DNA of 32,000 nucleotides from Planctopirus limnophila DSM 3776 (lineage in GTDB: Bacteria; Planctomycetota; Planctomycetia; Planctomycetales; Planctomycetaceae), in assembly GCF_000092105.1 (NCBI RefSeq), contig NC_014148.1:1350001-1382000 (forward strand). The letters are read 5' to 3'. Shown here one piece after another: positions 304-20,339 of this stretch; the first letter of the stretch is position 1; every line of letters begins with the position of its first letter. A program made the position numbers and the translations under genes. The notes beneath the pieces are model-generated. The model worked only from the letters and a program-made list of their open reading frames with translations, did not search any database and was not told where the DNA came from.

Positions 304-369
304 TTCGCCAATAGTGGGCACCACTGGTGATATGCCCCAGGTGGCTCTGCCGCCGCTTAACTGTTGGCG
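304..369. repeat. 66-bp structured repeat, copy A (left flank of the Hachiman+SPARSA cassette)
   Basis: It aligns without gaps to 8283-8348 at 57 of 66 positions, in the same orientation. The ends form an invariant 6-bp stem, cgccaa (306-311) with ttggcg (364-369). An internal helix pairs gggca with tgccc. Confidence 0.85.
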
Positions 370-444
370 AATTGAACCGTAGGCTATTTGGACTTCTTGC
401 GTTAATCTCATCAAATCAACCGATCGATTGGAAGTTCTCACCTC

Positions 445-3400
445 TCAAAGGGAGTCGAGCACTGACGTAAAATAGCTCGGAAAGGCCTGTAAAACCGACC
501 GGGCAGTTTCCTTCTTGTTGAGCAATCGTCGTTTCACCTTTTTACGTTCACTCGCACCAATCAAGCTTGCTGCCAACTCCTGCGCAAGCACGCGATCAGC
601 AAATCCCAATTCGTAAATGGTGATCGATAGAGACGAGGGAAGTCCGTACTTGAGTTCCTTTTGGAGCTGGCGTAGCAACTCGATCGTGTCGGTCGCAGTC
701 GATTCTTGGATTGTCAGGACTTCAGCCACAGCTCCCACAATCAGCATTCCATCAAATCCGAAACCGCTCTCGCATAAGTCGACAATGTGTTCGATTGTCG
801 GATGTAGATTTCTGGCACTGAACCGGCATCCGGCTCCCGATATGTCTGCAAAAATTGATTCGAAGGGCTTTCCCTCTATCCAACTCTGGGCGGCCTGACT
901 CACCGATGACGGAATTGAGCAACCGACGAATGATTTATTCCTGACAAAATCAGTAAACAGCGGCCAGATGTCACGCAATAAGGAAGCTGTATCGGAACGG
1001 CTTAACAGCTCACTCAGATTGTCTGTGACCCATTTCTGAATTGTGAGGTTATCAGCCAATCCAAAAAGGCTCCGCGAAAATATTCGACGTGTTGCCAAGT
1101 CTGGAATATTCGTCGCTACGTTCTCAGCCAACTTCTCAAATAATTCGACCAGCTTGATGCGCTCATCCTCTTCGGCAATGTGATATGCAAGGGTGGACGC
1201 GGCGAGCGACTCAATCGAAGCGCTCAACTCGTCACTGTTTTCTTCCCAATTAGCAAGAAGAAAACTTTCAATCGCTGACATGATGTCAGATTTCGCTTCC
1301 AGTTGATTTTCGAGATCCGCCTCGTCGAAGTTATTCTCTCGATACTTCACAGCGAGTCGGTTGGCTACACCGTGCCAGCCCTTCTTACCTTTCTTGTGCG
1401 CTTGCACCATCAGACCGACAGATAAACGGAGACTCATCTCGCGATCTTTTGAGTACACCGGATCAAGAACGGAGAGTAATGCGCTCCGACATTCCTCAGA
1501 CTTTGACGGATCCAAAAGTGCCTTTGTATTTGGCCATCTCCACCGTTCGCTCGCGTCGGTTCGTCCATCATAAATTTTCGGATCGGAGAAAATCACGGTT
1601 CCTTCCGTGTGCATCCCGGAGCGGCCGACACGACCAAGAAGATTGTGAAAATCACGTGTTTTGATCTGCTCGTTACCTTGCCTGGCTCCCGTGATAATCA
1701 GATACCGAATCGGCAAATTGACACCTTGCGCAAGTGTCGATGTGCAGATGACGACTTTTATTAAGCCCTCCTTCATTGCGAATTCGACCGCGAGTCGAAT
1801 TCCATGCGGGGTGTTCCCGTGATGCGTAAATACGCCAAGTCTTGCAGCCTTCGAAGATGCGACCGAGTCTCCCAGATTCCTCTCAATTTGATAGACGAGC
1901 CGCTGAATCTCACCTGCATCTGAATATGTGTCAGGAGATGCCATTGCTAAGCCGCGACTGAACACCTCAACTGCACTTTGAGCAATTGAGCTAGCCGTAG
2001 ATTTTGTGCCAACGAAAATCGCCACTCCGCCGGAGGCAGCTAACTTCATTCCCAAATACAGTCCGATGGAAGTGCTGTCCCGTTCAGGGAACTCTCGAGG
2101 CTTTCGTTCTCGCCGGAACAGATTCAAGGACTGTTTTTCAATAATTCGTGGTACAAAAAATTCGCCAATATCAGGATCATTGGAATCTGTGAATTCGAGC
2201 CGCCCGAGTCGATCTTTCCAACTTGCGAATGCTAGGGAACGCGTCATTGGAAGAAGTCCGTTGCCTGAGACGACGGCGCCTCCAGATCCAAGAAGCCAGT
2301 CTGCGATTGCTTGTGCATTGTTTAAGACTGCGGAGACTAGCACCGTCTGTGTCGTTTCCGCGACTGCGGATTTCAACGACGTTAAAAGCAACTCGTAAGT
2401 CACTCCACGTCTGCCGCTGTCAAATTGGTGGCCCTCATCGTAGAGCAACAATCCCAATTCCTCCGCAATTTCCGGGCTGTGCCTCAGCAGGTACAGGCAC
2501 TTCTCCGGAGTCATCACCAGCACTTGCTTCGCTGATAAGATATCAGAGACATCGAAGTCATCTTGTGAAACATCTGAGAGCGCATCTACGTTAATCGCTT
2601 CGCCACTAAAGCTACGTGCCAGAGCTTGTCGAATCTCCTCGCACAACGCTCTGAAGGGGGCAATAACAATCGCAAGCGAGGTTCGTTCAGCGTAGAACGC
2701 GCCACGAATCACCAAATCGAGCGATCGAGTCTTCCCGGCGCTTGTGGGCATTTGCACAACCGCCGACTTACCCCGATATAGACCATGGTCCCCGAGCAAC
2801 TGCTGCGCTGGCCACACTTCACGGATAAAGGTACTCTTGCGAATTATTGGAGCCCAAAGTGTTTCGCTAACATCGGTGTAGCGGGGAAGCGTTGTCCAGG
2901 TTGACTTGGCTTGCCTTGTTCGGGCGATGGCACCAATCAAATCAGCGAACAAGACTTCACGGGGGCTACCTTCAGCATAGGCTGACGTTCTTAAAGTACG
3001 GATCGCTAGATCCAGCTCTTGAATGCCTTCTCCCGTCGAATTGAAATTTCCCAGAGCATCTGCAAGGTTTCGAATTTCCGCGTACGTTTCGATCGGAAAA
3101 GCGGGAGCGACTTGAAAATCGCCTCTTAAACTCCACGACAGTAGCTGTTCAAGTCCTCTTGCACCCAAATCGGGACATGGTTCAGGGATTCGCGAAGCGA
3201 TGACAGATGAACTTCCTGGAAGTGCTGCGAGATAGTACGTAGCTCCTGCAAGGAGCAACATGTACGCGTCAAGTTGTGAGTCGAGTTTCGATTCCAAATA
3301 GGAATCGAAGAAGCGTGCACAGAACAGTAGGTGCTTTGAGGTTTCAGCAAGTCGCTCTGACGTCTTGTGATTGACTGACGTACCCGCGGCCACATCACCA

Positions 3401-3558
3401 AGCATTCCGATTGTCAGCGAAAAAAGATGGGCTGGGTCTCTCGGAATTCTGATGAAATCTTCGCTCGGCACACCGTATTCGTGCATCTTGGCCCGCGCAC
3501 GCGTTGCTCCAAGCAAACTTTCTGAGGCTTGTTCAGGCTTCATTCGCAGCGAGCTCAT
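445..3558 (-). CDS. hamB: Hachiman HamB, Ski2-like SF2 DExH helicase
   Basis: 1037-aa ORF. Walker A is MPTSAGKTRS, motif II is YDEGHQF, and the helicase-C motifs are TSTLAQGVNLP and GRVGRSG. Its start overlaps the stop of the upstream 273-aa gene by 26 nt. The pairing and sizes fit HamA/HamB. Confidence 0.82.
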   Translation of the reverse strand: MSSLRMKPEQASESLLGATRARAKMHEYGVPSEDFIRIPRDPAHLFSLTIGMLGDVAAGTSVNHKTSERLAETSKHLLFCARFFDSYLESKLDSQLDAYMLLLAGATYYLAALPGSSSVIASRIPEPCPDLGARGLEQLLSWSLRGDFQVAPAFPIETYAEIRNLADALGNFNSTGEGIQELDLAIRTLRTSAYAEGSPREVLFADLIGAIARTRQAKSTWTTLPRYTDVSETLWAPIIRKSTFIREVWPAQQLLGDHGLYRGKSAVVQMPTSAGKTRSLDLVIRGAFYAERTSLAIVIAPFRALCEEIRQALARSFSGEAINVDALSDVSQDDFDVSDILSAKQVLVMTPEKCLYLLRHSPEIAEELGLLLYDEGHQFDSGRRGVTYELLLTSLKSAVAETTQTVLVSAVLNNAQAIADWLLGSGGAVVSGNGLLPMTRSLAFASWKDRLGRLEFTDSNDPDIGEFFVPRIIEKQSLNLFRRERKPREFPERDSTSIGLYLGMKLAASGGVAIFVGTKSTASSIAQSAVEVFSRGLAMASPDTYSDAGEIQRLVYQIERNLGDSVASSKAARLGVFTHHGNTPHGIRLAVEFAMKEGLIKVVICTSTLAQGVNLPIRYLIITGARQGNEQIKTRDFHNLLGRVGRSGMHTEGTVIFSDPKIYDGRTDASERWRWPNTKALLDPSKSEECRSALLSVLDPVYSKDREMSLRLSVGLMVQAHKKGKKGWHGVANRLAVKYRENNFDEADLENQLEAKSDIMSAIESFLLANWEENSDELSASIESLAASTLAYHIAEEDERIKLVELFEKLAENVATNIPDLATRRIFSRSLFGLADNLTIQKWVTDNLSELLSRSDTASLLRDIWPLFTDFVRNKSFVGCSIPSSVSQAAQSWIEGKPFESIFADISGAGCRFSARNLHPTIEHIVDLCESGFGFDGMLIVGAVAEVLTIQESTATDTIELLRQLQKELKYGLPSSLSITIYELGFADRVLAQELAASLIGASERKKVKRRLLNKKETARSVLQAFPSYFTSVLDSL

Positions 3559-4354
3559 ATAAGGTATGTACCAACGCCATTAGATCATCGCCCTTAATCA
3601 CCATAAGCGATAATCCAGAGGATTTCGGGTGCTTTGAAGCATCTGTCTTGGAGAGAGTTGTTTGGCAATACGCCGTGCTCGTGAAGATCGCGACCGCGCC
3701 GTACGTTTCCTTGTATGGATGATCGGCGAAGTTCTGAAACCGCTCGATCGTCGCGATCTCATTCACAGCATTTGCATCCAGATAACGTTGCTTGATCGCA
3801 TTCAAGGACTCGGCTTTGCGAATCTCATCTTTGATTGAATCGTCAACTGCATCCTGAAGCCGGGGGGGCTTTCTTGCCCCTGAAAGTGCTCCTTTGGCTT
3901 CAAAAATAGCAAGCTCATCGTTTTTGGAATGCTTACCCGACTTCAGGATTTTGAATCCGAGTATGTCTCCGCCCTTTGTTGATTCATTTTTAATCGTTTT
4001 CGATGAATACCGAGTGCGCGGTACGAAGTAATTCAAGTTGTATTGCAGGAAATCTGCCACAAGGATTTCGCAGAAATCTCCTGATCGGATACTGGGGCCA
4101 GGAGCGATCGTTTTGCTCGGAAACTTCATCGTGAGTAGATACTGGCTTCTCGTGTGCCCAGTCCCCTTGCGAAGGGCATCGATCTGCGTATCGAGGCAGT
4201 AGTGGTTGCGAAAATGCTTTGCCCAAGACGACATCAGCGCTTTATCCGTCTGGTCGTACTGAAACGCCCAGACATGAATCGGCTTCCCATCCGCTGTCTT
4301 CTGCGGCGGCGAGAGTTGGACTAACCATCCAAGGTGCTGATTTGACCACGGCAT
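3533..4354 (-). CDS. hamA: Hachiman HamA (DUF1837-like, PD-(D/E)xK-type nuclease fold)
   Basis: 273 aa, immediately upstream of and overlapping the helicase gene. It carries a D...ExK-like signature, GGDILGF followed by IFEAKG. Size and position are typical of HamA. Confidence 0.75.
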   Translation of the reverse strand: MPWSNQHLGWLVQLSPPQKTADGKPIHVWAFQYDQTDKALMSSWAKHFRNHYCLDTQIDALRKGTGHTRSQYLLTMKFPSKTIAPGPSIRSGDFCEILVADFLQYNLNYFVPRTRYSSKTIKNESTKGGDILGFKILKSGKHSKNDELAIFEAKGALSGARKPPRLQDAVDDSIKDEIRKAESLNAIKQRYLDANAVNEIATIERFQNFADHPYKETYGAVAIFTSTAYCQTTLSKTDASKHPKSSGLSLMVIKGDDLMALVHTLYELAANEA

Positions 4355-4705
4355 TCCTAAGCGTCACTCCAGAAGTAGCCTCATTGAGCGGTTTGCAAAG
4401 CTGGCCATCGTCGACGAGCACGAAGGACTTCGTCTCGAATGAGCAACTTGCACTCGCCTTGCGCAGTGTTTGAACAACGGGATGAAAGGACTGTATCACA
4501 ACTTTTCGAAAGAGTGCATCCCCGGTGATTGTCCCGAGAGACCTAAATGCCTGAAAAAAGCGAGATCGACGGCACATTTTGATGTCACCAGAGGATCACT
4601 CGACTGTGATGCGAATCTCGGCTGCGGTCCGAATTCTGATGGGCACCAATTCCGGAAACTGACTGCGAATTGCGGCGTACAAATCGCCATCAGACTCGGG
4701 AGCAT

Positions 4706-6127
4706 TTACATGAAGAAGCGGAATTGATATGGCGCACTTCCCAGTCCACGCATCCGTTTCACGACGCGCGCCAAGACCTTTGAATATCCGAGGGTGACAG
4801 GCAGCGGATCGTAAAGGGCGTCGTTATTCCAATCCATTTTTGATAGAGCAAGGACGGCTCTCGCCGCGTCGTCCCACGTTCCATGTCCAGCATGTCGCAC
4901 CAGACGAAGCGGAACTGGAGTGCTACGAGAGCCCTGAAAATACGCTCCACGGTCGCTGATTCCTCGCACATCTCCATGCGTCCAGAGCAAACATTCGCGT
5001 GGGCTAAGTCCAACCAACGTGCCCCGTGCAACCGGATAACCTGCTGCTGCCCCTCTTGTCGCACCGCCCTGAGGGTCGATTCGGACACCGCGCCATCCGA
5101 CGCTCTCAACAATTTGAACAAGGTCAACCGCTTCACAAAGGTGCAGAGCTTCCATGCACCCATCGACTTCCTCACGTTTGAATTCAGTGGTTTTATGGAC
5201 CATGACCCGACGTGGAGTGCGCCCAGCATGCCGTCGTCTGTAAAGGTCCATTGAACGCGTCATAACTCGAAACATCTCCGTCCTGGAAAGGAATGGATTA
5301 TCTCGTTGAAGGTCGAATTCATGAGCATCGTATGCGACGAACTCCAGTCCCGAACCCTCAGCATCGAATACCTGACTACAACAGGTGACGAACCGGGGCC
5401 GATCCGATTCCACTGGGCGCTGGGCATACGAAATCCCAATATAGGCAGTCTCCGGATCAACGTCTGCCAGTTTCCATGGCACGCCACCCGCTTTGGCGTA
5501 TAGAGCTAATCCGACCCGCCACATCACGCTGGCCCGACACGGATACGAGAGCGCTTTGTCTTCGCGAACAATCTGAATGGGCAATCTTCGAGCGGCGGTA
5601 GCAGCCTTCAGGTGGTCGTGAAGATCGAAATCGTCGCCAGCCTTCCCTACAAATCCGGCTTCCCACCGCTGCGGAAGATAAATGAAAAGCACATCGAAAT
5701 CGGGACGCCGAGTTTCGAGCGCTTGAACCGCCCGTACAAGACGGTCGGCCAAAACAATCTGCGGAGTTGAAGAATCTTGGAATTCACCCTCTACACTTGA
5801 ATCGAGTTCAACATGACAAGCTCCGCCCGCTCCTTTCATATGAAGACCAAAGACTCTGTGAAACCCCGGCCACTCTGGCAGGTACTCTCTGCGTTCAATT
5901 GGCTGATGCGAGGAATTGAGTTGCTTCATGAAATCGTAAAGTCGCCCGGACTCACCATGCGGTGCGATTGTGGCAACGCGAATCGGATCAGGTACCAACC
6001 CTTTAGAATGAGGTCCGAATCGAAGTAGGCCACGAAGGGGATGCGTTTCTCTATCTGATGCACGATCAGGATGAAACGCTAGAAGAGGCTCCGGAAACGC
6101 GATATGGGATTGAATTCTGCTGCTCAT
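4706..6127 (-). CDS. Short prokaryotic Argonaute (MID-PIWI only), SPARSA partner
   Basis: 473 aa, which is too short to include N and PAZ domains. PIWI-like blocks are [21 protein letters not shown] and LLWTHGDV. The YIGISYAQ block has Ser where active pAgos carry the first catalytic Asp; this is my inference. Its start overlaps the stop of the SIR2 gene by 4 nt. Confidence 0.8.
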
Positions 6128-7860
6128 GGAGAAAGCCTTCGAGAGTACGCTGTTTCCGAACCAATTGAGAACGTTGCGTCAACGCCATTGCCAATTCCCA
6201 GCGCTCGAATCTCAATACCATCACCTTCGAGGTACTTGGCCCAGAATTCAATCACATCATTCAATTGCCTGTTGTAGCGTTTCACTGTTCTTTCGCGTGC
6301 AAAGTCAGTAGCAGCGGCTCGATTGGCTTCTGTCATTCCTACGAACACCACTCGCGGCTCGATGAGTACCCATAGCCGCTCTTCCGCCCAGTCTAAACGA
6401 ACTCCAATTCCTTCTCTCCAGGTTAATTCTGAATCCCTTGGGACCGACCCGCTTATAGAACCAGTTAACGCTTTAAGCCGTGCCCAGCGAGGATCGCTGG
6501 GGTTCTGAGGCGCGAGCAAGTCTGCCCGACGATGTCGAAAAGCATCGAGTCCCCGCTCTCGAACTAGTGCCGTAGTAAGCGCCGCTCGAAGCAAGCCACG
6601 CTCACCCGAATCATACCGCAATCTCGCTTTTTCGATTGTGTGTAAATCGAATTCTGAAATCGCATGATTAGAAAATGCCTGACGAATCTCTGAATCCTGA
6701 CCGAACGCCAATACGCCAGAACTCACACGTCCAACCAATACATTAACACCAACTTGCTTAACTGCGTCCGCAACTTCGGCATGTCCGCCAATTTCACATA
6801 CAACGCGTCGACAAACGGTAGGCGTTTGAATTGGAAGTGCATTAAACCTTACCACTGGCCATCCCATCCTGCCGGTGGGAGGCGGTGCACCACTCCAGTG
6901 ACGTCGCTCTGAGCTGAAAGCATCGAGCACTTTTGTGTCGATTCCTTCTAGAAGACGCGTCACATCCCGAAGTGTTTCGTCAAAATTCTCAATCGGAATC
7001 AAGGCCACTTCGATATTCGATGCCATTGCATGGCGGAGTAATTGTTCTACGCGGGGCAATGGGCGACCGTCTCCGCGTTGCAACCAGAACAATCCAGCAG
7101 GAAAAGCCCCACTGGTCACGGCTTCCTCCAGGGCGTCCATGATTGAATCGTCGCGTCCGCTGTAGCCAGCGACCACAAGACCAAATCGTCGACAACATTC
7201 GACTAGAAGCTGGCGCAAGCGGACATCTTGGTGTCGCAACTCGTCGTCAGTGTTTTTTAATCGCCTTGATCGAAAATCTCCGTGCAATTTGATTTCAATT
7301 GGCCAACGTTGATCTCCAACGAGTTGTGTCGCCACTTCAGGAGCGTCCAACCCCACCGTTGCCAATGCTCCAGTGTTTCCGTAGACCTTGGCACAGGCGT
7401 CGGCAACGAGCGAATCGAAGTTAGTCGTCCACAAAATCCTGGTGAGATCGGATTGCATGAGCGTCGCGATCGCTAGGTGCCCGACCGATGGCTTTGCTCC
7501 GTTCAACTTTGAATCTAAGTATGCTCGTCGATCAGTTTCTGCTGGATAAACAGATTCGAACAAGCTCGCGTATTCTTCTGGTGAGCCAGCGGAAGCCAAT
7601 TGACCGGATGAATCAATGTGAGCCTGAAGCTGGGCACGCACTACTGAATTGGAGAGGTCGGCCACTGTTTGCGGAGAAACTCGCCTCTGACTCACAAAAA
7701 GCCGCTGCTTGAATTCCCAAATCATATCCGAAGCGGTTGGAATTCCCGCCGAAGCTGAAGCCCCGGCACCCAGCATCCACATCAGATTTTTGGCTCGCAA
7801 CGCGAAACGCCGAGCGAAGTCGTCCAAACCGAGTTGCGGAACATCACTGGATGCATCCAT
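6124..7860 (-). CDS. SIR2-APAZ protein (NADase effector of a SPARSA system)
   Basis: 578 aa. The N-terminal SIR2 signature is [22 protein letters not shown] and KLHGDF. The C-terminal half is of APAZ size. It is translationally coupled (ATGA overlap) to the short pAgo downstream. Confidence 0.82.
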
Positions 7861-8121
7861 ACATTCACTTTTTTCAATCGGTCACGGGAAGTATCCGAAA
7901 TTCGAATTCTGCCAAAAACGTGTCAATCGCCCTACTGGATGAGCAGTCCAGAATAACACACGACAATTCGACTTGGAATAAGCCGAGGGAAGCTGCAATT
8001 GTCCCGTTAAACGTCCAACGCAAGCAGGTTCACGTTGACTTTAGGGCATTTGGGGGAAGTGCGGTCGAGATGGTGGCCGGACCGCGCGGCAGAACCGTCA
8101 GAAGAACCTCGGGAAAGACTA

Positions 8122-8154
8122 GGCGGATCTGGGATTGAAATCACCAGATCCGCC
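8122..8154. repeat. Perfect 11-bp inverted repeat (hairpin) upstream of the SIR2-APAZ gene
   Basis: ggcggatctgg (8122-8132) is the exact reverse complement of ccagatccgcc (8144-8154). The 11-nt spacer can add a further 3 bp, gat with atc. It lies 262 bp from the SIR2-APAZ start codon. Confidence 0.85.
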
Positions 8155-8282
8155 CCCACGTCACTTCGACGCTTCGACTCGGTTATTCCTTGGCGAGGTT
8201 GCTTCCCAGCAGAGCCTGCCTCCGCTTCACCGAGTACAACTGAGCCTGCCACAGCCATTTTCTCTACTCAAGAAAACTGGAA

Positions 8283-8348
8283 TTCGCCAATAGTGGGCTC
8301 CACCGGTAAAAAGCCCAAGGAGGCTACGCCGCCGCTTAACTGTTGGCG
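8283..8348. repeat. 66-bp structured repeat, copy B (right flank of the Hachiman+SPARSA cassette)
   Basis: 57 of 66 identity to 304-369, in the same orientation and with the same terminal stem cgccaa/ttggcg. The internal helix becomes gggct/agccc, a compensatory change relative to copy A. Confidence 0.85.
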
Positions 8349-8553
8349 GAATCTCCCCCGTCAAATCAAGGGTTTATTCCGTCTGCAATTTATTCTTCTG
8401 CTTATGTCACGTTTTCCGAACGGTCCGCATAACGGAGATTAGAAGCCCGTTTTCGTTCTCGGTGAAACGATGGAGACGTCCTTTGACCGAGAGAAACGGT
8501 GCTGCGTGAAAGGTAAGGTTTGTCATTCCTCAGATACAGAAATGGGGCACAGC

Positions 8554-8871
8554 ATGGCGAATCAAAAGCCTGTTCACGAAATTCGACTCGGAAAGGTGAA
8601 GGCAGCAATTTAGAGAAATGAGACGGACGCGGGAACACGTTACAGCGTGAGCATCGCTCGGCTCTACAAGGTCGAAGGAGGTAACTGGGAAACCAGCACG
8701 TCCTTCGGTCGCGATGAACTGCCACTCGTCAGCAAAGTTGCAGACATGGTCCACACATGGATCTATCAGCAATCGGAACGAACTGAAGAGCCTAAGGAGC
8801 AGCCTCAAACGTTGCCCTCAAGCTCTGAACCAAAATCCGGACGACGACGAGAAAGGGCCGGTGCACGCTAA
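8554..8871 (+). pseudogene. Small conserved hypothetical gene interrupted by an in-frame TAG
   Basis: ATG 8554 gives MANQKPVHEIRLGKVKAAI, then TAG at 8611-8613. The same frame continues as RNETDAGTRYSVSIARLYKVEGGNWETSTSFGRDELPLVSKVADMVHTWIY. From unverified memory, homologues next to ardC on conjugative elements read AAIW at this point, which would imply TGG to TAG. Confidence 0.5.
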
Positions 8872-9084
8872 TTGCATCGACCGAACAGTGAGAGGTTCTT
8901 TTCTTCGGTTTCACGCACCACCGATCTCTCACCTTCGATTGCCGTTTGGCAATCTCCAAACGGGCAGAAGACCTATGCCCACCGTTTCCATTGGACGGCT
9001 TACGAGCCAGCCAGTGGAGACCGGTGGCGTGCATCCAAAGGTTTTCCATTGTTTTCCCTTCTGCGGCTTTTTCCAGCTTAACGC

Positions 9085-10104
9085 GTGGTCAAGGTCCAAC
9101 GCTCAGTAGAGCGTTTGCTTCTTCGCGGTTCCCGCGAAGAAGCAAACTTGACTGACCGCGTTGCCAAAAGCTGGGCCGCCGACGGGCCTCAATCAATCCG
9201 TTTCACGACTAGTCAGTCGGCTCGGCACCTTGGAGGCATTCATGAATCGAGAAGAAGCATTGAAAAAAGTGATGATGCGTTGAAGGAACTGGCTGAAGCA
9301 TTGAAGCATGGCAAGATCGACACGTTGCTCAAGTACCTCGATACGCTCAGTCGCTTCCATCGGTATTCCTTTGGGAATTGCATTCTGATTGGTGTGCAAC
9401 GGCCAGATGCCAGTATGGTGGCGGGTCTCCATCGCTGGAAGCAGTTGGGACGTTGGGTGAAGAAAGATGAGAAGGGGATTGCGATCCTCGCTCCTATGGT
9501 TTCTCGCAAAGACAAGGAGAGTGATTCGGCAGAAGTAGGGGAGGAACCGTCCGAAACACGAACCTCAACCTTATGTGGATTCCGCGTCGCGTATGTATTC
9601 GACGTTCAACAGACCGAGGGCAAGGAACTTCCAGAGTTCGCGCACCTTGGTGGAGATCCCGGTGACAAAATTGACCGCTTGGTCGATATCACCACAGAAA
9701 GAGGGATCGACGTCGAATTCGTGGATTCACTACCTGGCGGAGCCAATGGAGTTTCACTCGGAGGAATGGTGCAAGTTGTTTCAACGCTTCCGGCACCGCA
9801 GAAGTTCTATACGCTTGTTCACTATCTGGCACAGGAACTTTAGCATCGCGGTGATAGACGAAGCGAAACAACGAAGGTCATTCGCGAGACAGAAGCAGAA
9901 GCAGTCGCTTATGTGGTCTGTCGTTCCGTTTGGCTTGAATGTTCAACACGGGCGTCTGACTACATCCAGATCTGGAATGGGGACGACAAAGTTCTCGTGC
10001 AGTCGCTGGAACTCGTTCGTCATGTCGCAACCGAAATCATCGCAGAGCTTGAATCTGAAGTCGGCCATGAGACTGCGACAGAGATGGCTCATGCTGAATG
10101 CTGA
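9085..10104 (+). pseudogene. ardC: ArdC-like antirestriction protein (ssDNA-binding N-domain plus metalloprotease C-domain), disrupted
   Basis: The N-domain motif is HRYSFGNCILIGVQRPDASMVAGLHRWKQLGRWVKKDEKGIAILAP. An in-frame TAG sits at 9841-9843. The same frame resumes as HRGDRRSETTKVIRETEAEAVAYVV...SDYIQIW. The expected HExxH reads HYLAQ (9820-9834). A good GGAGG-N5-ATG start at 9242 is one frame off and meets the main frame at an A6 run (9263-9268). Confidence 0.75.
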
Positions 10105-10356: not shown

Positions 10357-11227
10357 GCTAGGCCGTATGGACATTCGATCTTGCAGGTGATGAGCTGGTT
10401 AAGCGAGTATAAGTCTACTCAAGGAAAAGGGACTATGCTCAAGCGATACGCACTTTCGGAAGAGCTTTGGAAGCGCATCGAACCACTCTGCCCCGGCAAA
10501 GCCTGTGATCCCGGTCGTACGGCGGCCGACAATCGACTCTTTGTCGAGTGAGTGATTTTCGTGCTCAAATCTGGGATTTCATGGGCAGATCTCCCCGAGC
10601 GATTTGGTTTACATAACTTGGTTTGGAGGCGGTATAACCGCTGGTGCCTGAGAGGAACATGGCAGAAGATTGCCCAGGCTCTGCAAGATCCAGAACTGGA
10701 AGAAGTTCAGATCGATTCGACGACGGCCAAAGCCCATCCCGTCGCCGCGACAGGGCGCCGTCAGGCCAAGGAAAAAAGTTGAGGCCGATGAACGACGCTG
10801 CCCGGGACGCAGTCGCGGTGGATTGACGACGAAAGTTCACGCCGCTGTGGATGGTCGAGGCCGCCTTCTCAAGTTGATACTGACTCCCGGCCATGCAGGC
10901 GATGCCCCTGTGGGAGAAAAGCTGCTGGAAGGTCTTTGTGCGAATCATGTCTTGGCAGACGCATCCTACGACAGCGACGCGAACCGGCTGCGTGTGAAGC
11001 GGATCTGGGCACAGGCGTGTATCAAACCGAAGGCAAACCGGAAGGCGAGAAAGCGGTGCATCAAGGAACGCTACCGGCATCGGAACGTGATCAAGAGGTT
11101 TTTCGGAGCCCTGAAACGCTTTCGACGTATCGGCACCCGTAATGATAAGAAAGCCGCGAACTTCGCGGGCTTCCTCTGACTTGTTGTCCGTTTGGCCAAG
11201 CCATTTCGACTTACCATAGGTCGCAGC
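10357..11227 (+). mobile_element. IS5-family insertion sequence (IS427/IS1031-like size), degenerate
   Basis: About 871 bp. Candidate imperfect terminal inverted repeats are 10357-10384 and the reverse complement of 11200-11227, matching at 18 of 28 positions. They enclose a two-frame DDE transposase. No clear target-site duplication was seen, so the boundaries are approximate. Confidence 0.55.
10435..11179 (+). pseudogene. IS5-family DDE transposase, two frames, with an in-frame TGA in the first
   Basis: The first frame reads MLKRYALSEELWKRIEPLCPGK...NRLFVE, then TGA at 10549-10551, then [19 protein letters not shown]...IDSTTAKAH. The second frame, offset +1 from about 10772, reads GRSRGGLTTKVHAAVD...LADASYDSD...YRHRNVIKRFFGALKRFRRIGTRNDK. 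These are typical IS5 motifs. The frame junction lies at GAAAAAAG (10771-10778). Confidence 0.8.
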
Positions 11228-11850: not shown

Positions 11851-12855
11851 ATGATGGAGTTGGCCACGATGGCCACGGCACAACAACTCAAAGCCCTGTT
11901 GCAAAGCTATAGCGAGGCGGACAGTGAAATGTTCGTCTCAGTCGCGTTGCAGATTGCTGCGCATGAAGCGCGAACGGGTAAAGGTAAATTTGCGTTAGAA
12001 ATCAAGAAGCTCGTCGACGAAATTAAGGGAAAGCAGCGATCCTCCAGCCTGGGAGAATCGGTTCCGATCACTCGTCCGACCGGAGAATTGGCGACACTGC
12101 TTTCCGCGACGTATCCCCACACGAAGCTGGCGGAGATGGTACTGGCTCCGGAACAGCGAGAGTCGCTGGAGTTGGTCATCCGTGAATATTGTCAGCAGGG
12201 AAAACTACGAGAATATGGACTCTCTGCCCGCCGGAAACTGCTGTTGGTTGGTCCTCCGGGCGTCGGTAAGACGATGACTTCGTGGGCTCTGGCAGGAGAG
12301 TTGAAGCTACCGCACTTCACAGTGCAGCTACATTCGCTCATCACAAAGTACATGGGAGAGACCGCCGCCAAGCTCTTTGCGGTCTTTGAGGCGATGCGGC
12401 ATACGCGTGGGGTCTACCTGTTCGATGAATTCGATGCGATTGGCTCGATGCGAGCTGGTAGTAATGATGTGGGAGAAATCCGTCGCGTGTTGAACTCCTT
12501 CCTGCAATTTCTGGAGCAGGACGACTCGGACAGCCTGATTGTGGCTGCAACCAATCTGGAAGAGATCTTGGATGAAGCATTGTTCCGGCGGTTTGACGAT
12601 GTGATTAGGTATCAACTGCCGACCGAAATAGAACTCCGGGATTTGATCGCCAATCGCTTGGCAGCCTTCAAGATTGACAACAAAGAATTGCGAGAAATGG
12701 CAAGCCAAGCTCAAGGACTTAGCCATGCAGAGATTTGCCGTGCCTGTGATGAGGCGGCGAAAGTGGCTGTCCTGGATGATCGACGAAAAATTGCCAGAGA
12801 AGATGTTCAGCGTGCAATTCGCTTACGCCAGGAACGCAAACGCTCCGTGAGGTAG
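11851..12855 (+). CDS. ietA: Classical-clade AAA+ ATPase, IetA-like
   Basis: 334 aa. Walker A is GPPGVGKT, Walker B is VYLFDEFDA, sensor-1 is VAATN and the Arg-finger region is LFRRFD. It sits 18 nt upstream of an S8 protease gene. This pairing is the IetAS architecture described by Gao et al. 2020. Confidence 0.72.
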   Translation: MMELATMATAQQLKALLQSYSEADSEMFVSVALQIAAHEARTGKGKFALEIKKLVDEIKGKQRSSSLGESVPITRPTGELATLLSATYPHTKLAEMVLAPEQRESLELVIREYCQQGKLREYGLSARRKLLLVGPPGVGKTMTSWALAGELKLPHFTVQLHSLITKYMGETAAKLFAVFEAMRHTRGVYLFDEFDAIGSMRAGSNDVGEIRRVLNSFLQFLEQDDSDSLIVAATNLEEILDEALFRRFDDVIRYQLPTEIELRDLIANRLAAFKIDNKELREMASQAQGLSHAEICRACDEAAKVAVLDDRRKIAREDVQRAIRLRQERKRSVR

Positions 12856-12873
12856 GAGAGATATCAAAGGGCC

Positions 12874-15351
12874 ATGCCGGATTATCGACATTTTACGTTA
12901 ACAGGCACTCGCACTTCACGAGGCTATACGACTCCTCCTCCTGGTGGTGGCGATCGCAAAAGTCTTCCTTATCCCGACCGAGCCACTCATGGTGAGAAGC
13001 TGCTTCAGGATCTGGAGCGTGCCGAGCGTAACGCACAGGCACGCCAACAATCAGAACCGATTCGGGAAGGCCTGCAATTCATCCCAATGCGGTTCAGCGA
13101 GGGATCGGACTTTGACCTCAAGCTCCAGAGTTTGGCAGGCAACGAGAGCAGCGGCATTCGCATTCTCAGCGTCCGGGAGAAGGGAACGACTAAGGAATAT
13201 CTGGTTGCGGTTCCAGACGGCAAAGTCGCAGGACTGGGCAAAAAGTTTCGCAAGTACCGGGACGAGGATTCTGAGACAGGCCGTCCCAAAAACGAAGACT
13301 TTGCTGCCAGCGTGGCAAGCATCGAAGCGGGAGAGTTGGCCGATTACTGGACTGAACCAAAAGGCGCATTACCTGTCAGCGATCATTTGCTCTGGTGGGA
13401 GGTCTGGCTGAGTAGTTCTCCGGGTGATGAAGTGGAAGCCTGGTTTCGCCGCGTGGCTGGAGAACAAAAAATACTGGTCAGCTCACAGCAAGTTCGCTTT
13501 CCGGATCGCCTGGTGATTCTGGCGTATGCAACGATCACTCAATGGGAAGCTTTTCCTGGCCTCCTGCAATATCTCGCCGAGTTTCGACGGGCCAAACTGG
13601 TGGCGGGTGAGTTCACTCGTCTCAATCCCGCCAGTCAGGCAGAGTACATTCAGGATCTATTGTCACGTACTCAATTCGCTCCTAGTGATGCTGTGCGAGT
13701 TTGTCTGCTGGACACCGGAGTGGATCGCGGACACCCACTCCTGGAAGCCTCCCTGTCAGTCACAGATTTGCAGTCCTGGCGAGAGGAATGGGGGGCTAAT
13801 GACCATGCTGGTCATGGAACAGAATTAGCGGGAATATGCCTGTTCGGTTCCCTTGTGGGGCCGCTCTATGACGGTGAGCAAATCGAACTGAAACATCGTC
13901 TCGAATCGGTAAAAATCATTCCACCTTTTGGCCGAAACGAGCCTCCGGATTATGGACCAATTACGGTGGGCGCGATGGCACTGGCGGAAACCTCCTCTCC
14001 TCATTCTTCACGTGTATTCTGTTTGGCAGTGACCGTTGAAGGAGAGGACCATTGGCGTCCGACATTATGGTCAGCCGCCATAGACCAGGCTTGCGCTGGT
14101 GCGCTGGATGAACAGCAACGATTGGTGATTATTTCTGCTGGCAATCTTGGTGAAGAAGTCATTGGTAAGAACTACCCGGCAGAGAATCATGTATCGAGTG
14201 TGGAAGATCCAGCGCAGGCCTGGAATGCCTTAACGGTTGGCGCTTATACAAACATGGCTTGGATGGATGAAGTGGCTCTGGAGGGATACACGCCGATCGC
14301 CAAACCGGGGAGTCTTTCGCCCGCGAGTCGCACATCCCTCTGCTGGAACGAGAACGGGCCATACAAACCCGATGTCGTTTTCGAAGGGGGTAACTACGCT
14401 CGCAATGCTCAGTGTTTTATCACAAGTGTTGAAGACCTGGATCTACTGACGACTGCCTCCCTCACAAAGACGCAAGCTCTCCTCGGAACGACACGGAATA
14501 CGAGTGCTGCAACCGCTTTGGCGGCACGTATGGCTGCGATATTACAAGCAGAGTACCCCGCGTATTGGCCAGAATCGATCCGAGGTTTGATGGTCCACTC
14601 GGCGGAGTGGACACCGCAAATGCTGGAGGAATTTCCGTTTCGGGATCGTAGGCAACGACTGAAAGTCTATGGCATGGGGGTTCCGAACCTGACTCGGGCA
14701 CGTCGTTCGGCAGAAGGATTCGCCACGATGGTGATTCAGGATCACTTGCAGCCATACAAGTTGACGTCGGGTGACAATGCCACGCATGAGATGCATTTTC
14801 ATCACCTTCCTTTGCCCCGAAAAGTGCTGGAAGAGTTAGGAAGCACGCCCGTCCGAATGCGAGTAACCTTGTCTTACTTTATTGAACCCAACCCTCCCCG
14901 TCGCGGATATGTGGCGCGTTATCAGTATGCTTCGCACGGGTTGAGGTTCTCAGTACGTCGTCCCCAGGAGACACCAGAGCGTATGATCGCTCGTCTCTCG
15001 ACTACAGAATGGCCGATTGAGAATGGGAAAAAGAAACGACCATTTGAAACAATTTCGGATGATCGAAATTGGGATCTGGGACCTGAGGCAGTCAGTGTTC
15101 GCGGCTCGATTCACTCGGATGCCTGGGAGGGAACTGCGGCTCAACTGGCATTATCAAACTTAATCGGAGTCTATCCTGTCAGCGGTTGGTGGCGTTATCG
15201 CAAGGATCGCACCATCGTTGAAAAGTCAGCCCGTTATTCGTTGATTGTCAGTATCTCGACTTCTGACACCACAGTGGACCTCTATAACATCATTGCGAAT
15301 GAAATCAGCTCACGAATTTCTGCTGGTATCGCTACGGAGATTCCGACTTGA
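12874..15351 (+). CDS. ietS: S8 (subtilisin-like) serine peptidase, IetS-like
   Basis: 825 aa. The catalytic residues all look intact: Asp in LLDTGVD, His in HGTELAG, the oxyanion Asn in ISAGNLG and Ser in NTSAATALAA. It has a roughly 270-aa N-terminal region and a roughly 200-aa C-terminal region with no motif I recognise. Confidence 0.8.
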   Translation: MPDYRHFTLTGTRTSRGYTTPPPGGGDRKSLPYPDRATHGEKLLQDLERAERNAQARQQSEPIREGLQFIPMRFSEGSDFDLKLQSLAGNESSGIRILSVREKGTTKEYLVAVPDGKVAGLGKKFRKYRDEDSETGRPKNEDFAASVASIEAGELADYWTEPKGALPVSDHLLWWEVWLSSSPGDEVEAWFRRVAGEQKILVSSQQVRFPDRLVILAYATITQWEAFPGLLQYLAEFRRAKLVAGEFTRLNPASQAEYIQDLLSRTQFAPSDAVRVCLLDTGVDRGHPLLEASLSVTDLQSWREEWGANDHAGHGTELAGICLFGSLVGPLYDGEQIELKHRLESVKIIPPFGRNEPPDYGPITVGAMALAETSSPHSSRVFCLAVTVEGEDHWRPTLWSAAIDQACAGALDEQQRLVIISAGNLGEEVIGKNYPAENHVSSVEDPAQAWNALTVGAYTNMAWMDEVALEGYTPIAKPGSLSPASRTSLCWNENGPYKPDVVFEGGNYARNAQCFITSVEDLDLLTTASLTKTQALLGTTRNTSAATALAARMAAILQAEYPAYWPESIRGLMVHSAEWTPQMLEEFPFRDRRQRLKVYGMGVPNLTRARRSAEGFATMVIQDHLQPYKLTSGDNATHEMHFHHLPLPRKVLEELGSTPVRMRVTLSYFIEPNPPRRGYVARYQYASHGLRFSVRRPQETPERMIARLSTTEWPIENGKKKRPFETISDDRNWDLGPEAVSVRGSIHSDAWEGTAAQLALSNLIGVYPVSGWWRYRKDRTIVEKSARYSLIVSISTSDTTVDLYNIIANEISSRISAGIATEIPT

Positions 15352-15470
15352 AGGACGTGAGTTTTACGTGTTCTGATCGCGCCGCAAAGTCGTTCTTCTT
15401 TCGTTTCTAGTATTCTGTTGGTGGAAAACGGCGACTGGTAAACCGATCGGTCCAGTCACAGATATGATTA

Positions 15471-15758
15471 TTGATGGCCTCACTTTTTCCGTACAACATG
15501 GTGAAACACGTGAGGTTCCCGAGACGAGAATTACTGGGAGGAATCAATATTCACTCTTCTGATTTAGGTGACGCTCTCCTAAGCCGAGAAGAGATCGGCG
15601 ATGACGTATTGTTTGAAGTGCCGTTAAACTCGGGTGAGTCCATAGCAGCAGGGTCACTCTGCTCAATTATGATCATTATCACCTTTCGCCGCCTAAAGCA
15701 TACTCCGAGAGTGATTGGATTCGAGTTAAACCAAGAATACATTCGAAATATAGGGTGA
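15471..15758 (+). CDS. Small hypothetical ORF (95 codons); possibly a decayed methyltransferase fragment
   Basis: It ends 1 nt before the next ORF. The segment GDDVLFEVPLNSGESIAAGSL...RVIGFELNQEYI weakly resembles the C-terminal motif I region of beta-class DNA MTases (VLDPFxGSGTT...iGiEl..eY), but the glycines are not conserved. The call is weak. Confidence 0.25.
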   Translation: MMASLFPYNMVKHVRFPRRELLGGINIHSSDLGDALLSREEIGDDVLFEVPLNSGESIAAGSLCSIMIIITFRRLKHTPRVIGFELNQEYIRNIG

Positions 15759-15759
15759 C

Positions 15760-16668
15760 GTGCAAAATATGGATGAAGTCCTACTTCGCAGGCTTCTGGA
15801 TCGGCCGCATGCTCCATCACCAGGAGACTCGTCATTCTTATCATCATTGTCTGAGCACAATCGTGCCATTGAGGTGGCTGTAATCTATCACCATCGGATG
15901 GCATTCTATTACTGGCTTTGCTGGACAACAAATGACTGGAGCTGCTCACTCCGGTCGGATCAGCTTGCACCAGATTTAGTGACGGTGGACTGGCATGATG
16001 ACGTGGGTGGTGAGCCCGATTGCGTGTTCGACGAATTGCATTCTTTAATCGCACGTTTAGAGGTGGAAAACGTTGACGATCATGCCAGTCTAAGAGACGC
16101 TGTGCAGCGGCGACAAATGAGTGAGAACAACGTCATTGCTTATTCCATGCTGGGGCTGCGTTCGCTTAATGATGGTCACATTTTTCCAGCACAGTATCTT
16201 AATGCGATTGGCAACGTATATGTGCTCTACAAGCAACGAGAGAAGCACAGCTGTAGAATGACTGACCAGTATGGAAACCAGCATGAAATTCATTACGTCA
16301 GGACCGTGCGAGACCTGCTTAAGCATCTCAAGAAAGCAGAATCTCGACCGACTTACTTCGACCTCGATGTTGATTATTTCTTCCGTGAAGGCAGGGGAAA
16401 GGTCCGCGGTGCAGAGGTAATGATTGCTGAAGAGGAGATCCGCAGTCTTTTAGATCTAGATGGTGATTTCATGGCGCATCTAGGTGCTCGGCCAATGCGT
16501 GGAATGACTATTGCTCTGGAACCAACTTATTGTGGAGGGCTCATTGGATGTTTCAAAGCACTATCCGTTATCTGCGAGACTCTCTTTGAGGGCTCGTTGC
16601 TGGGGGACAAAGTTGACTGGAAGGATCCGCGAAAGTCGCACAAGAAACCGAAAACAAATCAGACGTGA
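15760..16668 (+). CDS. UPF0489-like protein with arginase/HDAC-fold binuclear metal-site signature
   Basis: 302 aa; the true start may be ATG 15769. Motifs are an HH pair (VIYHHRMAFYYW), D-x-H-x-D as DWHDD (15988-16002) and D-x-D-x-D as DLDVD (16360-16374). This pattern matches the ureohydrolase/deacetylase metal ligands and my recollection of the UPF0489 (C5orf22-like) family. Confidence 0.6.
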   Translation: MQNMDEVLLRRLLDRPHAPSPGDSSFLSSLSEHNRAIEVAVIYHHRMAFYYWLCWTTNDWSCSLRSDQLAPDLVTVDWHDDVGGEPDCVFDELHSLIARLEVENVDDHASLRDAVQRRQMSENNVIAYSMLGLRSLNDGHIFPAQYLNAIGNVYVLYKQREKHSCRMTDQYGNQHEIHYVRTVRDLLKHLKKAESRPTYFDLDVDYFFREGRGKVRGAEVMIAEEEIRSLLDLDGDFMAHLGARPMRGMTIALEPTYCGGLIGCFKALSVICETLFEGSLLGDKVDWKDPRKSHKKPKTNQT

Positions 16669-16789
16669 TCATGGTTTCCAGGCGTGTTCGGTAAAGTGTG
16701 GAGAATAGGAAGATAACCATGAAAAATGCATTCGCCGAATTTTGTCAATCATCTATGGTCTATGGACGTTGATAATAGTGTGGTTTTCG

Positions 16790-16812
16790 AGGCGACGAGC
16801 AATAAGTCGCCT
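16790..16812. terminator. Hairpin between convergent genes (possible factor-independent or bidirectional stop, no U-tract)
   Basis: aggcgac (16790-16796) pairs with gtcgcct (16806-16812) around a 9-nt loop. It lies between the UPF0489-like stop (16668) and the sngC stop (16825). There is no T-run on either strand. Confidence 0.25.
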
Positions 16813-16824
16813 GCGAAAGTTCCG

Positions 16825-19002: not shown

Positions 19003-20339
19003 AATCGAAACGTCGTTAGGTCGTCGGAGTTTTTTGGCAGATTTTCAGAATTTTCTTCCCTTGCGGTATCAAGGTTCATCTCGTCCGTAGTGGGGACAAA
19101 AGATTCAGCCTGTTTTATCGAGAGCAATTGCTCCCAAGATGCTGTGGGATTCTGTTGAAGAACCTGCATTAGGCCCACAAAATCCTTAACAGTATCACGC
19201 GGCGTTTGGAAATAGGACGATCCCATGCGTTGCTGGCAGACTTCCAAGTATCTCACAATACCTTCATCGGGAAGTAGTCGCTTCGCAAGGTCGCCACCGT
19301 CAAACACATTTCGAATATTGTCGAGCAGCACATAACAATCTTCGGCAGTGAGGCTTTCTAAATGGACGACAGGCGCATTGAGATCCCTTAATCCTTCCGA
19401 AGCAAAGCGATTGGCAGCAAGTCGTGTGGCCAATGCTTCATAGCTGAAAATTCCTCTGCGACGGTCTTCGAGACACTCGGGTGTTCCTGCGAAAACAAAA
19501 CCAATTCCACTTGCGCGCCCCTGCAGCGAATCATTCACAATACGAAGAATCGCTTCGTAATTGTTGTTACGCGCCACTGTGTTGTTTAAACGATGTGATA
19601 GAACCACTAACTCATCAACGTTGACGAGCAGCCCTGCAAATCCTGCCATTCGGACAAATGCAGCAAGGAGTTTCAAATAATCATAGAATGAATCATCCTC
19701 AATGATGGAGCGGACTCCAAGGTCCTGCCGGGCTTCTGTTTTTGTGGCGTATTCTCCACGCAACCAGCGCAATGCAGCTTGCTGTTGTACTTCGTTATGA
19801 GTCAAAAAGCCCTCAAAATATTTGACAATCACATTGGCAAAGTCGTAGCCACTGACGAGTTCCTGCAGCGGTTGAAGTCGCTTGAGAAGTTCTCTGCGGA
19901 CGCCCTCATCGTCGCCCCCATCTTCGCGCACCTCATGATCCACATCACCAACCCAGCGTTGGACGAGATTTGGCAAGGCTCCGCCGTCGGGCTTGGATCT
20001 CGTCGACAGATTCTTGATTAGCTCTGCATAAAGAGATCTTGCTTGGCCATTTGATCCGTGCAGTCGTCGCTCTGTCGTGATGTCTGCTTGGGCCACCACA
20101 AACTTCCGTTGGAGAGCAACGGTTCGCAGTAGGTTCAGAAAGAATGTCTTTCCACTGCCAAATCGCCCAATAATGAAGCGGCAAGCCGCACCACCTTGTC
20201 CAACCTGTTCAAGATCCCGCACGAGAGCTTGTACCTCGTCGTTGCGGCCTACCTGAATATGGTGCAAACCAATACCGGGAACCACTCCGGCAGCCAAGGA
20301 TTGAATGATCGCAGTCCGTTCTCGGGCAGGGATGGTCAT
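18999..20339 (-). CDS. sngB: Shango SngB, BrxD/DUF2791-like ATPase
   Basis: 446 aa. Walker A is GRFGSGKTFFL and Walker B is LLVNVDELV. It has 4-nt overlaps with both neighbouring genes. Confidence 0.78.
   Translation of the reverse strand: MTIPARERTAIIQSLAAGVVPGIGLHHIQVGRNDEVQALVRDLEQVGQGGAACRFIIGRFGSGKTFFLNLLRTVALQRKFVVAQADITTERRLHGSNGQARSLYAELIKNLSTRSKPDGGALPNLVQRWVGDVDHEVREDGGDDEGVRRELLKRLQPLQELVSGYDFANVIVKYFEGFLTHNEVQQQAALRWLRGEYATKTEARQDLGVRSIIEDDSFYDYLKLLAAFVRMAGFAGLLVNVDELVVLSHRLNNTVARNNNYEAILRIVNDSLQGRASGIGFVFAGTPECLEDRRRGIFSYEALATRLAANRFASEGLRDLNAPVVHLESLTAEDCYVLLDNIRNVFDGGDLAKRLLPDEGIVRYLEVCQQRMGSSYFQTPRDTVKDFVGLMQVLQQNPTASWEQLLSIKQAESFVPTTDEMNLDTAREENSENLPKNSDDLTTFRL

Follow-up and report, generated by a model that had tools for sequence, protein, structure and literature searches.

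Defence islands turn over fast, yet the sequences at which their modules are exchanged have seldom been identified. In the 32,000-nt stretch of Planctopirus limnophila DSM 3776 analysed here (contig NC_014148.1, positions 1,350,001 to 1,382,000; hereafter the window), two short direct repeats bracket the defence systems Hachiman and SPARSA, which raises the question whether the repeats record the insertion of a defence cassette or have a different origin. The initial annotation of the window had described an ungapped, co-oriented match at 57 of 66 positions between 304-369 and 8283-8348, with similarity that ends abruptly on both sides, and both observations hold: the copies lie on the + strand, match each other with a BLAST E-value of 4e-15 when the window is compared with itself, and lose homology within 0-2 nt of each edge. 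With moderate confidence, we interpret the repeats as two old paralogous copies of a small structured element that is carried between gene modules by mobile elements of the Planctomycetota, a co-transcribed cis-acting RNA being the favoured form of the element.

A degenerate pattern for the repeat unit finds only the two copies in the 32 kb and has no match in 100 dinucleotide-preserving shuffles. The stem that closes the predicted fold lengthens the repeat by two bases (TT...AA), so that the folded unit is slightly longer than the repeat itself, and a covariance-model scan of the window with filters off detected no third, decayed copy in addition to the following two:

304-371, + strand: left unit copy, 87.8 bits with the covariance model (66-nt repeat at 304-369)
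8283-8350, + strand: right unit copy, 87.6 bits with the covariance model, inside a conserved mobile-element control region

The unit belongs to a larger family. The exact 18-mer at its 3′ end, GCCGCTTAACTGTTGGCG, was scanned over 185,579 species genomes of bacteria and archaea, one per species, and gave 20 matches, about the number expected by chance; seven of these contain the whole unit, and all seven are from Planctomycetota (three contigs of one Pirellulaceae metagenome-assembled genome (MAG), two Pirellula MAGs, one unclassified MAG and one Kuenenia MAG). A scan of metagenomes with a 5′ pattern yielded eight further loci, with the unit present in all of them, and more copies were taken from the contexts around homologues of neighbouring genes. 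Together these make up a family in which at least 19 different sequences, 64-84 nt long, are represented; its sources within the Planctomycetota include Pirellulaceae, Planctopirus and Kuenenia. Many copies scattered through the genome, an outcome that the initial annotation had considered, were not seen: the copy number is low, with at most three exact 18-mer matches per MAG in the collection scanned, from which P. limnophila is absent and in which the MAGs are incomplete.

All members follow a common layout, TT-YGCCAATAG-Y-GGGCT-CCAYYGGTnnnA-AGCCC-MA-GG[variable hairpin]CC-GCTTAA-CTGTTGGCR-AA, which on the + strand of the window folds into a three-helix junction. The closing stem has 11-12 bp, and its inner part, CCAAUAG paired with CUGUUGG, is invariant and includes one U·G pair. 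The second helix, P2, is a 5-bp hairpin with a conserved CCAYYGGU loop, and double changes are found at four of its five pairs. The third hairpin, P3, is free in both sequence and length, whereas the single-stranded GCUUAA is conserved.

Several observations speak for this fold. First, 93.3% of the cells are paired in the 19-sequence alignment and changes on both sides occur at 15 of the 22 pairs; none of 500 column shuffles attains any of five structure measures, and pairing falls to 28-58% when the partner columns are slid by 1-3 positions. Next, compensatory changes are evident between the closest members. The right copy has an orthologue on a 366-kb contig of a relative (ENA ERZ26867466, here L060; loci fetched for comparison are referred to by such numbers), and between the two the P2 stem changes from GGGCU/AGCCC to GGGUU/AACCC, a compensatory replacement of C-G by U-A, while an A·G mismatch in P3 is restored to U·G and the other substitutions fall in loops. 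The left copy of the window has GGGCA/UGCCC in P2, likewise a compensatory variant (A-U to U-A) of the GGGCU/AGCCC of the family. Finally, the paired positions contain 31 G·U against 4 A·C cells, or 12 against 4 when the invariant pair is excluded, and this excess indicates that the folding strand is the one written as + in the window. The pattern of substitutions shows that the unit is under selection for structure, and strong constraint on the sequence itself is seen in the inner closing stem, the P2 loop and the 3′ junction strand.

At gathering thresholds Rfam 15 gave no match in the window, and at permissive E-values nothing was found on the units; the best sub-threshold match, to sul1 (18.5 bits against a cut-off of 36.2, E = 0.27), does not lie on them. 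In seven other unit loci nothing in Rfam overlapped the units either, and miRNA-type matches were confined to a neighbouring palindrome. The source of these spurious matches is an 86-nt near-perfect palindrome that directly follows the unit of the Kuenenia locus (L022, 285-370). A twister or hammerhead ribozyme, to which the unit bears a superficial likeness in GCCAAU and CCAAGCCC, was rejected as the letters in question belong to a covarying stem, the junction strands do not fit and the Rfam models are silent. ARAGORN found no tRNA or tmRNA in the window, and a fragment of either as an integration target was detected neither in the window nor in 20 loci. A plasmid origin was dismissed with no DNA or protein match in PLSDB, and a viral origin with nothing real and no unit copies in IMG/VR. 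Decayed extra copies were also sought with filters off in L022, L034, L035, L051 and L060, and none were found.

The genomic setting of the family is uniform, and the unit appears to be confined to the accessory DNA of one integrative-element family of Planctomycetota. Genes that recur in these elements encode a PC4-like protein of about 100 aa, a protein with an ArdC-N domain and a metallopeptidase region, RadC, antitoxin+PIN pairs of the VapBC type and a highly conserved Xer-like tyrosine recombinase. The unit precedes the PC4-like gene, within non-coding DNA, at the right copy of the window and in L060, L014, L022/L061 and L062, just after radC in L021, L019/25, L034 and L035 (and after a decayed radC in L018), just before radC in L029/30, on both sides of radC in L051, and before toxin-antitoxin pairs in L018, L024 and L025. 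In every case but the left copy of the window its orientation agrees with that of one or more adjacent genes, and in several loci it lies 1-82 nt downstream of an ORF stop. Co-oriented pairs of units surround differing cargo, namely radC (L051), vapBC (L018), four unknown ORFs (L031) and, in the window, Hachiman and SPARSA; the units occur in pairs at most and never in longer arrays, the pair in the window spanning 4-5 genes.

The unit and the integrase are both far better conserved than the other genes of the element, the RadC proteins beside units being only 42-67% identical. In L017 as well as L034 the unit is followed, 1.4 kb downstream, by a 72%-identical integrase, and a tyrosine recombinase (PF00589), which was not compared directly with that of L017 and L034, is also present in L051 and L060, both of which have the unit. 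At six loci a 71%-identical integrase is present and no unit lies within 7-10 kb, and the window itself has no integrase.

To follow the history of the two copies in the window, the features between and beside them have to be considered:

445-3543, − strand: HamB, the Hachiman helicase, 1032 aa (PADLOC HamB1, 1292.7 bits, end to end)
3533-4234, − strand: HamA of Hachiman (DUF1837), 233 aa (PADLOC HamA1, E = 1.7e-111)
4242-4577, − strand: called ORF of 111 aa between pAgo and HamA, on the Hachiman side of a breakpoint at 4708 (gene call)
4706-6127, − strand: short prokaryotic Argonaute (pAgo) of SPARSA (PADLOC pAgo class I, E = 3.4e-198)
6124-7860, − strand: SIR2-APAZ partner of SPARSA (PADLOC Aga_SIR2-PNTD1-PNTD2, E = 1.9e-182), 100% identical to a P. 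limnophila DSM 3776 protein
8122-8274, + strand: conserved non-coding hairpin (8122-8154) and a block of about 110 nt (8163-8274), part of the control region of the mobile element, just upstream of the right copy
8554-8835, + strand: PC4-like pseudogene (protein of about 100 aa), first gene of the element module (tblastn, 67% identity to the L022 protein)
9085-10092, + strand: ArdC-like pseudogene with ArdC-N and metallopeptidase region (Pfam ArdcN), stop at 9841-9843
10552-11179: IS5-type fragments, right of the element pseudogenes

The initial annotation had placed two complete defence systems and nothing else between the copies. Both systems are indeed there, matched end to end by PADLOC models, but so are the 111-aa ORF, for which neither a PADLOC match nor a precomputed Pfam match was found, and about 420 nt of non-coding DNA (7861-8282), the right part of which, with the hairpin and the block, belongs to the neighbouring mobile-element module and not to SPARSA. 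The decayed mobile-element remnant that had been noted to the right of 8348 is readily recognised in the PC4-like and ArdC-like pseudogenes and the IS5-type fragments. The PC4-like reading frame is interrupted by an in-frame TAG at 8611-8613 (TGG to TAG) where the homologues have Trp, and the ArdC-like pseudogene is covered by a single tblastn alignment from 9256 to 10092 that continues past the end of the ORF. A 35-nt near-perfect palindrome (9113-9147) is found between the two pseudogenes.

The L060 contig provides the most informative comparison. Its SIR2-APAZ protein is 92% identical to that of the window, and its nucleotide homology, of 82%, is limited to window positions 4708-10047, a stretch that contains pAgo, SIR2-APAZ, the full intergenic region, the right unit, the PC4-like gene and ArdC, the latter two being intact in the relative (ArdC of 287 aa). 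L060 has a single unit, at 9481-9552 on its − strand, which is the orthologue of the right copy. Past the pAgo stop, a Septu-like/PDC-M01 pair takes the place of the 111-aa ORF, Hachiman and the left unit, and the point at which the two sequences part, window position 4708, is right after that stop and not at a unit. Thus cargo does vary between relatives, a comparison the initial annotation had called for, and the same two copies are not simply repeated without change. The conserved synteny assigns SPARSA to the right copy and its element, and Hachiman with the left copy to a separate block, and Hachiman and SPARSA do not constitute one evolutionary cassette. A few kb beyond the Septu-like pair, beside insertion sequence (IS) fragments and within the island, L060 also has 16 tRNA genes (16533-19088) in the order Lys, Ile, Lys, Thr, Gly, Ser, Gly, Asn, Gln, Gln, Ala, Val, Leu, Asp, Leu, Tyr; the window is devoid of tRNA genes.

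The control region leads to a similar view of the right copy. The hairpin, the block, the right unit and the stretch before the PC4-like start are common to L060 and L062 and in part to L014 and L022/L061, and of these L062, L014 and L022/L061 have no SPARSA on their left side. The block is 87.5% identical over 72 nt in L014 and 77% identical over 112 nt in L022, and the blocks of L060 and L062 are nearly identical to that of the window; the hairpin is retained among the loci though its sequence changes. In L031 the block stands directly before an ORF, without a unit. Neither an Rfam match nor a consensus promoter was found in the hairpin and block (8122-8274), and a protein-coding origin of the block was discarded since the called 83-aa ORF is unlike the ORF at the same place in L014. 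As the control region is also present in loci that lack SPARSA, the sequence that adjoins the right copy on its left does not belong to a cassette, and the comparison places the right copy in its native position, with ancestral DNA on both sides.

The left copy is different. Neither its flanks nor a further 2.7 kb leftward have a DNA or protein match in any fetched locus, and with respect to those loci the copy appears to be an orphan. Its closest relatives are the right copy (85% identity) and the L060 copy (82%), and the P3 stem is common to all three. The right copy and its L060 orthologue are 87% identical, and a divergence of the two window copies that is so close to this value implies that the left copy dates from about the time at which the two genomes split. 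The left copy would accordingly be regarded, on these identities, as an old paralogue within the Planctopirus lineage.

Although the swap at 4708 took place elsewhere, the units of other loci carry traces of exchange. In about 100 of 115 locus pairs nucleotide homology is limited to the unit within about 5 nt, which in large part reflects the much stronger conservation of the unit relative to its neighbours. More telling are two recent one-sided homologies: L027 and L029/30 have 108 nt of 5′ flank at 92-93% identity and the unit in common and 0 nt beyond, while L025 and L028 have in common the unit and a downstream toxin-antitoxin module at 94-95% identity and 0 nt of 5′ flank. Such homologies are the traces expected of crossovers or conversion inside the unit, and as crossovers may occur anywhere within it, apparent breakpoints would be seen at either edge. 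In addition, the units of L024 (191-260) and L028 (9965-10032) have flanks that are 92-99% identical and P3 hairpins that are wholly different, GGCGGCGATAGCCAGCC in the former and GGCAAGCCCATTGCC in the latter, and this replacement suggests patch conversion between units. The initial annotation had offered, as one possibility, a repeat family that marks a hotspot of cargo swapping. In spirit that idea largely survives: the family is restricted to accessory DNA, pairs surround differing cargo and homology ends at the unit edges, but the swap that can be followed at this locus is not at a unit. The data support it in the weaker form that the units act as recombination joints between modules, though not as the only places where cargo changes.

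As to the function of the unit, the folded sense strand may be read as a cis-acting signal at module borders, most likely in the form of a co-transcribed RNA that would punctuate the operons of the element by termination or antitermination, processing or 3′-end protection. A cis-acting RNA is suggested by the asymmetry of the strands, by co-orientation with genes and by a location within gene rows that resemble operons, and we favour this role tentatively within the overall account. As a by-product or second function, the conserved patches of about 65 bp would serve as recombination joints for the exchange of toxin-antitoxin, radC and defence modules. In the window the right copy lies in the control region at the head of a now decayed PC4-like/ArdC module, and the left copy is an old orphan of the same lineage. 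A loose functional analogy is provided by the put RNAs of phage HK022, putL and putR, which are about 70 nt long, consist of two adjacent stem-loops, are present as two similar copies per mobile genome, and lie downstream of early promoters, co-oriented with long operons, where they act in cis on RNA polymerase (PMC9378689). In antitermination of the put type the nascent RNA binds RNA polymerase and suppresses downstream terminators (PMC9378689). The unit resembles put in size, in two adjacent stem-loops, in copy number and in position alone; it has no sequence similarity to put, possesses an extra closing stem and is also found after genes and near convergent genes. If it is an RNA signal, the unit would represent a new regulatory motif of mobile elements in a phylum whose RNA biology is almost uncharacterised.

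A number of points weigh against a cis-acting RNA. The covariation alignment was fitted to the model and is biased toward the structure. The left copy is antisense to both of its flanking genes and would be non-functional there as an RNA element, and a convergent gene follows about a quarter of the units, so that the unit is not a dedicated 5′ leader. Scans beside both copies of the window revealed no consensus promoter or terminator. More generally, the sequence data fit a cis-acting RNA and a single-stranded-DNA site alike, and the pairs of units around cargo and the crossovers within units agree just as well with a site dedicated to recombination.

Such a site is the closest competitor, doubtful in itself though nearly as likely as the RNA, and the one that would matter most. 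Here a site-specific recombinase, such as the Xer-like integrase of the element, would act on the folded strand in the form of single-stranded DNA or a cruciform, and modules flanked by units would be exchangeable cassettes comparable to those bounded by attC sites in integrons, with Hachiman and SPARSA excisable as a 7,979-bp circle. Co-oriented pairs around radC, vapBC, the four small ORFs and the two defence systems are as expected of cassettes, as are breakpoints exactly at unit edges, and the breakpoints are nevertheless distributed over both edges where a fixed crossover point would give one; the window and L060, moreover, exchanged their cargo away from the unit. The integrase found 1.4 kb downstream in L017 and L034 and the PF00589 recombinases of L051 and L060, together with the outstanding conservation of unit and integrase among the element genes, point to a partner enzyme, but the integrase is not of the integron type (31.6 bits against the 265-bit cut-off of TIGR02249), and the six loci with its 71%-identical relative are without a unit nearby.

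The comparison with attC itself is instructive. The sites are similarly short (57-141 nt for attC) and structured, fold rather than sequence is kept in the variable middle, co-oriented copies lie between modules with toxin-antitoxin and defence cargo, and the site is often just after an ORF stop. The attC consensus has an inverse core R″, RYYYAAC, at the 5′ end and a core R′, GTTRRRY, at the 3′ end. In essentially all members the unit ends instead in CGCCAAT, with three mismatches to the former, and GTTGGCG, with two to the latter, so the R″/R′ core motifs are missing. The single-hairpin architecture is missing as well, attC being one imperfect hairpin with extrahelical bases and the unit a three-helix junction with an independent 5′ hairpin, P2. 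There is no IntI, attI or Pc, and the nearby recombinases best match Xer-type models. The unit sequence is strongly conserved across genera, and a further difference is that units may be as much as 8 kb apart and enclose several genes in either orientation. Integron attC sites recombine on the bottom strand, and the unit folds on the opposite one, the sense strand of the neighbouring genes. In its behaviour the unit resembles attC and, as described below, REP/ERIC repeats, but it fails as a member of attC on the core sites, the hairpin architecture and IntI. That it is the site of a previously unrecognised, integron-like system of cassette exchange, on which the Xer-like integrase or another protein of the element would act, is a still less likely proposition. 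In that case the branched site, specified by its structure, would allow the capture and swapping of toxin-antitoxin modules, radC and entire defence systems, Hachiman and SPARSA among them. The unit is compact, supported by covariation and more conserved than the genes around it, it borders toxin-antitoxin, radC, anti-restriction and defence modules, and it carries crossover traces inside; should it prove to be a recombination site, the problem that integrons solve would have a second solution with a different structure, and the interest would be high, whereas otherwise the interest would be moderate.

Improbable, next, is a selfish miniature repeat resembling REP sequences or miniature inverted-repeat transposable elements (MITEs), non-autonomous, mobilised in trans and repeatedly inserted into intergenic DNA of the elements, with the fold serving for recognition by a transposase. 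The unit is discrete and has terminal inverted repeats of 11-12 bp, homology is confined to it in most locus pairs, and its presence varies, as shown by the L031 block that precedes an ORF directly and by the units on either or both sides of radC. A target-site duplication was, however, found in none of 14 flanks, on which membership among MITEs appears to fail, and no transposase is consistently near. The copy number is low in the MAGs scanned, the orientation is nearly always that of the neighbouring genes, only one element family is involved, and the one-sided homologies require crossovers and not insertions. REP, BIME and ERIC repeats are likewise small, imperfect, intergenic palindromes in mostly transcribed DNA, fold in mRNA, are recombination substrates and mark operon boundaries. 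They differ in having tens to hundreds of copies in the core genome in both orientations, while the unit is low-copy in the MAGs scanned, nearly always co-oriented, found in one mobile-element family and branched in its fold.

We regard it as quite improbable that the unit is a transfer or replication signal on single-stranded DNA, that is, an origin of transfer (a hairpin with a nick site in GCTTAAC), a priming signal or a promoter of the Frpo/ssi type, in a leading region that would start with genes of the single-stranded-DNA-binding type and an ArdC anti-restriction gene. The unit does lie in a divergent non-coding control region that directly precedes the PC4-like and ArdC genes in five lineages. 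Invading conjugative DNA typically encodes ArdC and RadC (PMC5512222), and in leading regions structured single-stranded promoters are found upstream of genes for single-stranded-DNA-binding proteins and anti-defence proteins (PMC11541004); both precedents count in favour. Up to two copies occur per element, including both sides of radC and positions before toxin-antitoxin pairs, which is not as expected of such a signal, and relaxase and type IV secretion genes are absent from the Pfam matches listed for the element loci, where many genes have no Pfam match. The 66-nt unit is also judged too short for Frpo or ssi, the known Frpo being about 300 nt. Homologues of these have been sought in regulatory regions of 50-350 bp, by the criterion that a hairpin of the transferred strand restores the hexamers at −35 and −10 (PMC11541004), and neither in nor around either copy of the window is there such a sigma-70-like pair. 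The transferred strand is the one from which genes in a leading region are transcribed, and a signal there would be expected to fold on the antisense strand (PMC11541004), whereas in the unit the sense strand folds.

Lastly, it is very unlikely that the repeats are attL/attR scars of the site-specific integration of a Hachiman+SPARSA cassette into one 66-bp target, duplicated in the process, as the initial annotation had envisaged from two co-oriented, sharply bounded copies flanking two defence systems much as short repeats flank the accessory genes of integrative elements: the supposed cassette DNA at 8122-8282 is conserved together with the unit and its right flank in the SPARSA-free L014, L022/L061 and L062, both flanks of the right copy being ancestral, the relative L060 keeps SPARSA, half of the presumed cargo, and a single copy with neither Hachiman nor the left one, the window copies are as diverged (85%) as the orthologues of two species (87%), an integrase is missing from the window, and the unit is a structured family present in many contexts. 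A repeat pair that brackets defence genes is not in itself evidence of cassette insertion.

Some further observations concern the genes of the element family. The PC4-like protein has 179 homologues at E ≤ 1e-5, and the named sources are almost all Pirellulaceae or Pirellula. In Pirellulaceae SH467 (CP197412; L033, 4109-12364) PC4-like genes of 100 aa are located immediately upstream of successive RHS/YD-repeat toxin genes, without a unit, an arrangement that represents another use of the gene that elsewhere heads the ArdC module. In L045 (7501-20312) a PC4-like gene, likewise unit-free, is surrounded by PhD/PIN, TacA/acetyltransferase and three AbiEi/AbiEii pairs, all co-oriented, which implies that such toxin-antitoxin arrays do not need the unit. 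The Xer-like integrase has more than 7,998 homologues at E ≤ 1e-40, and defence cargo follows directly after it: in L051 (11073-21011) a long pAgo, a DpnII/MboI-type nuclease and a type I restriction system, and in L054-L059, where no units were found, a GAAD/GASH/DO-GTPase system.

The window as a whole forms one long defence island with Hachiman, SPARSA, IetAS, Shango and a Mokosh-like helicase. To the right of the element remnant, positions 11851-26523 contain IetA and IetS, a Shango-like trio of SngA, a BrxC/D-type ATPase and SngC, and the Mokosh-like helicase of 1136 aa. The island also has neighbours beyond the window, as in the 2.7 kb to its left (L001, 16024-18204) a ThsB TIR protein of Thoeris is found together with DrmD-like and cyclase-like fragments.

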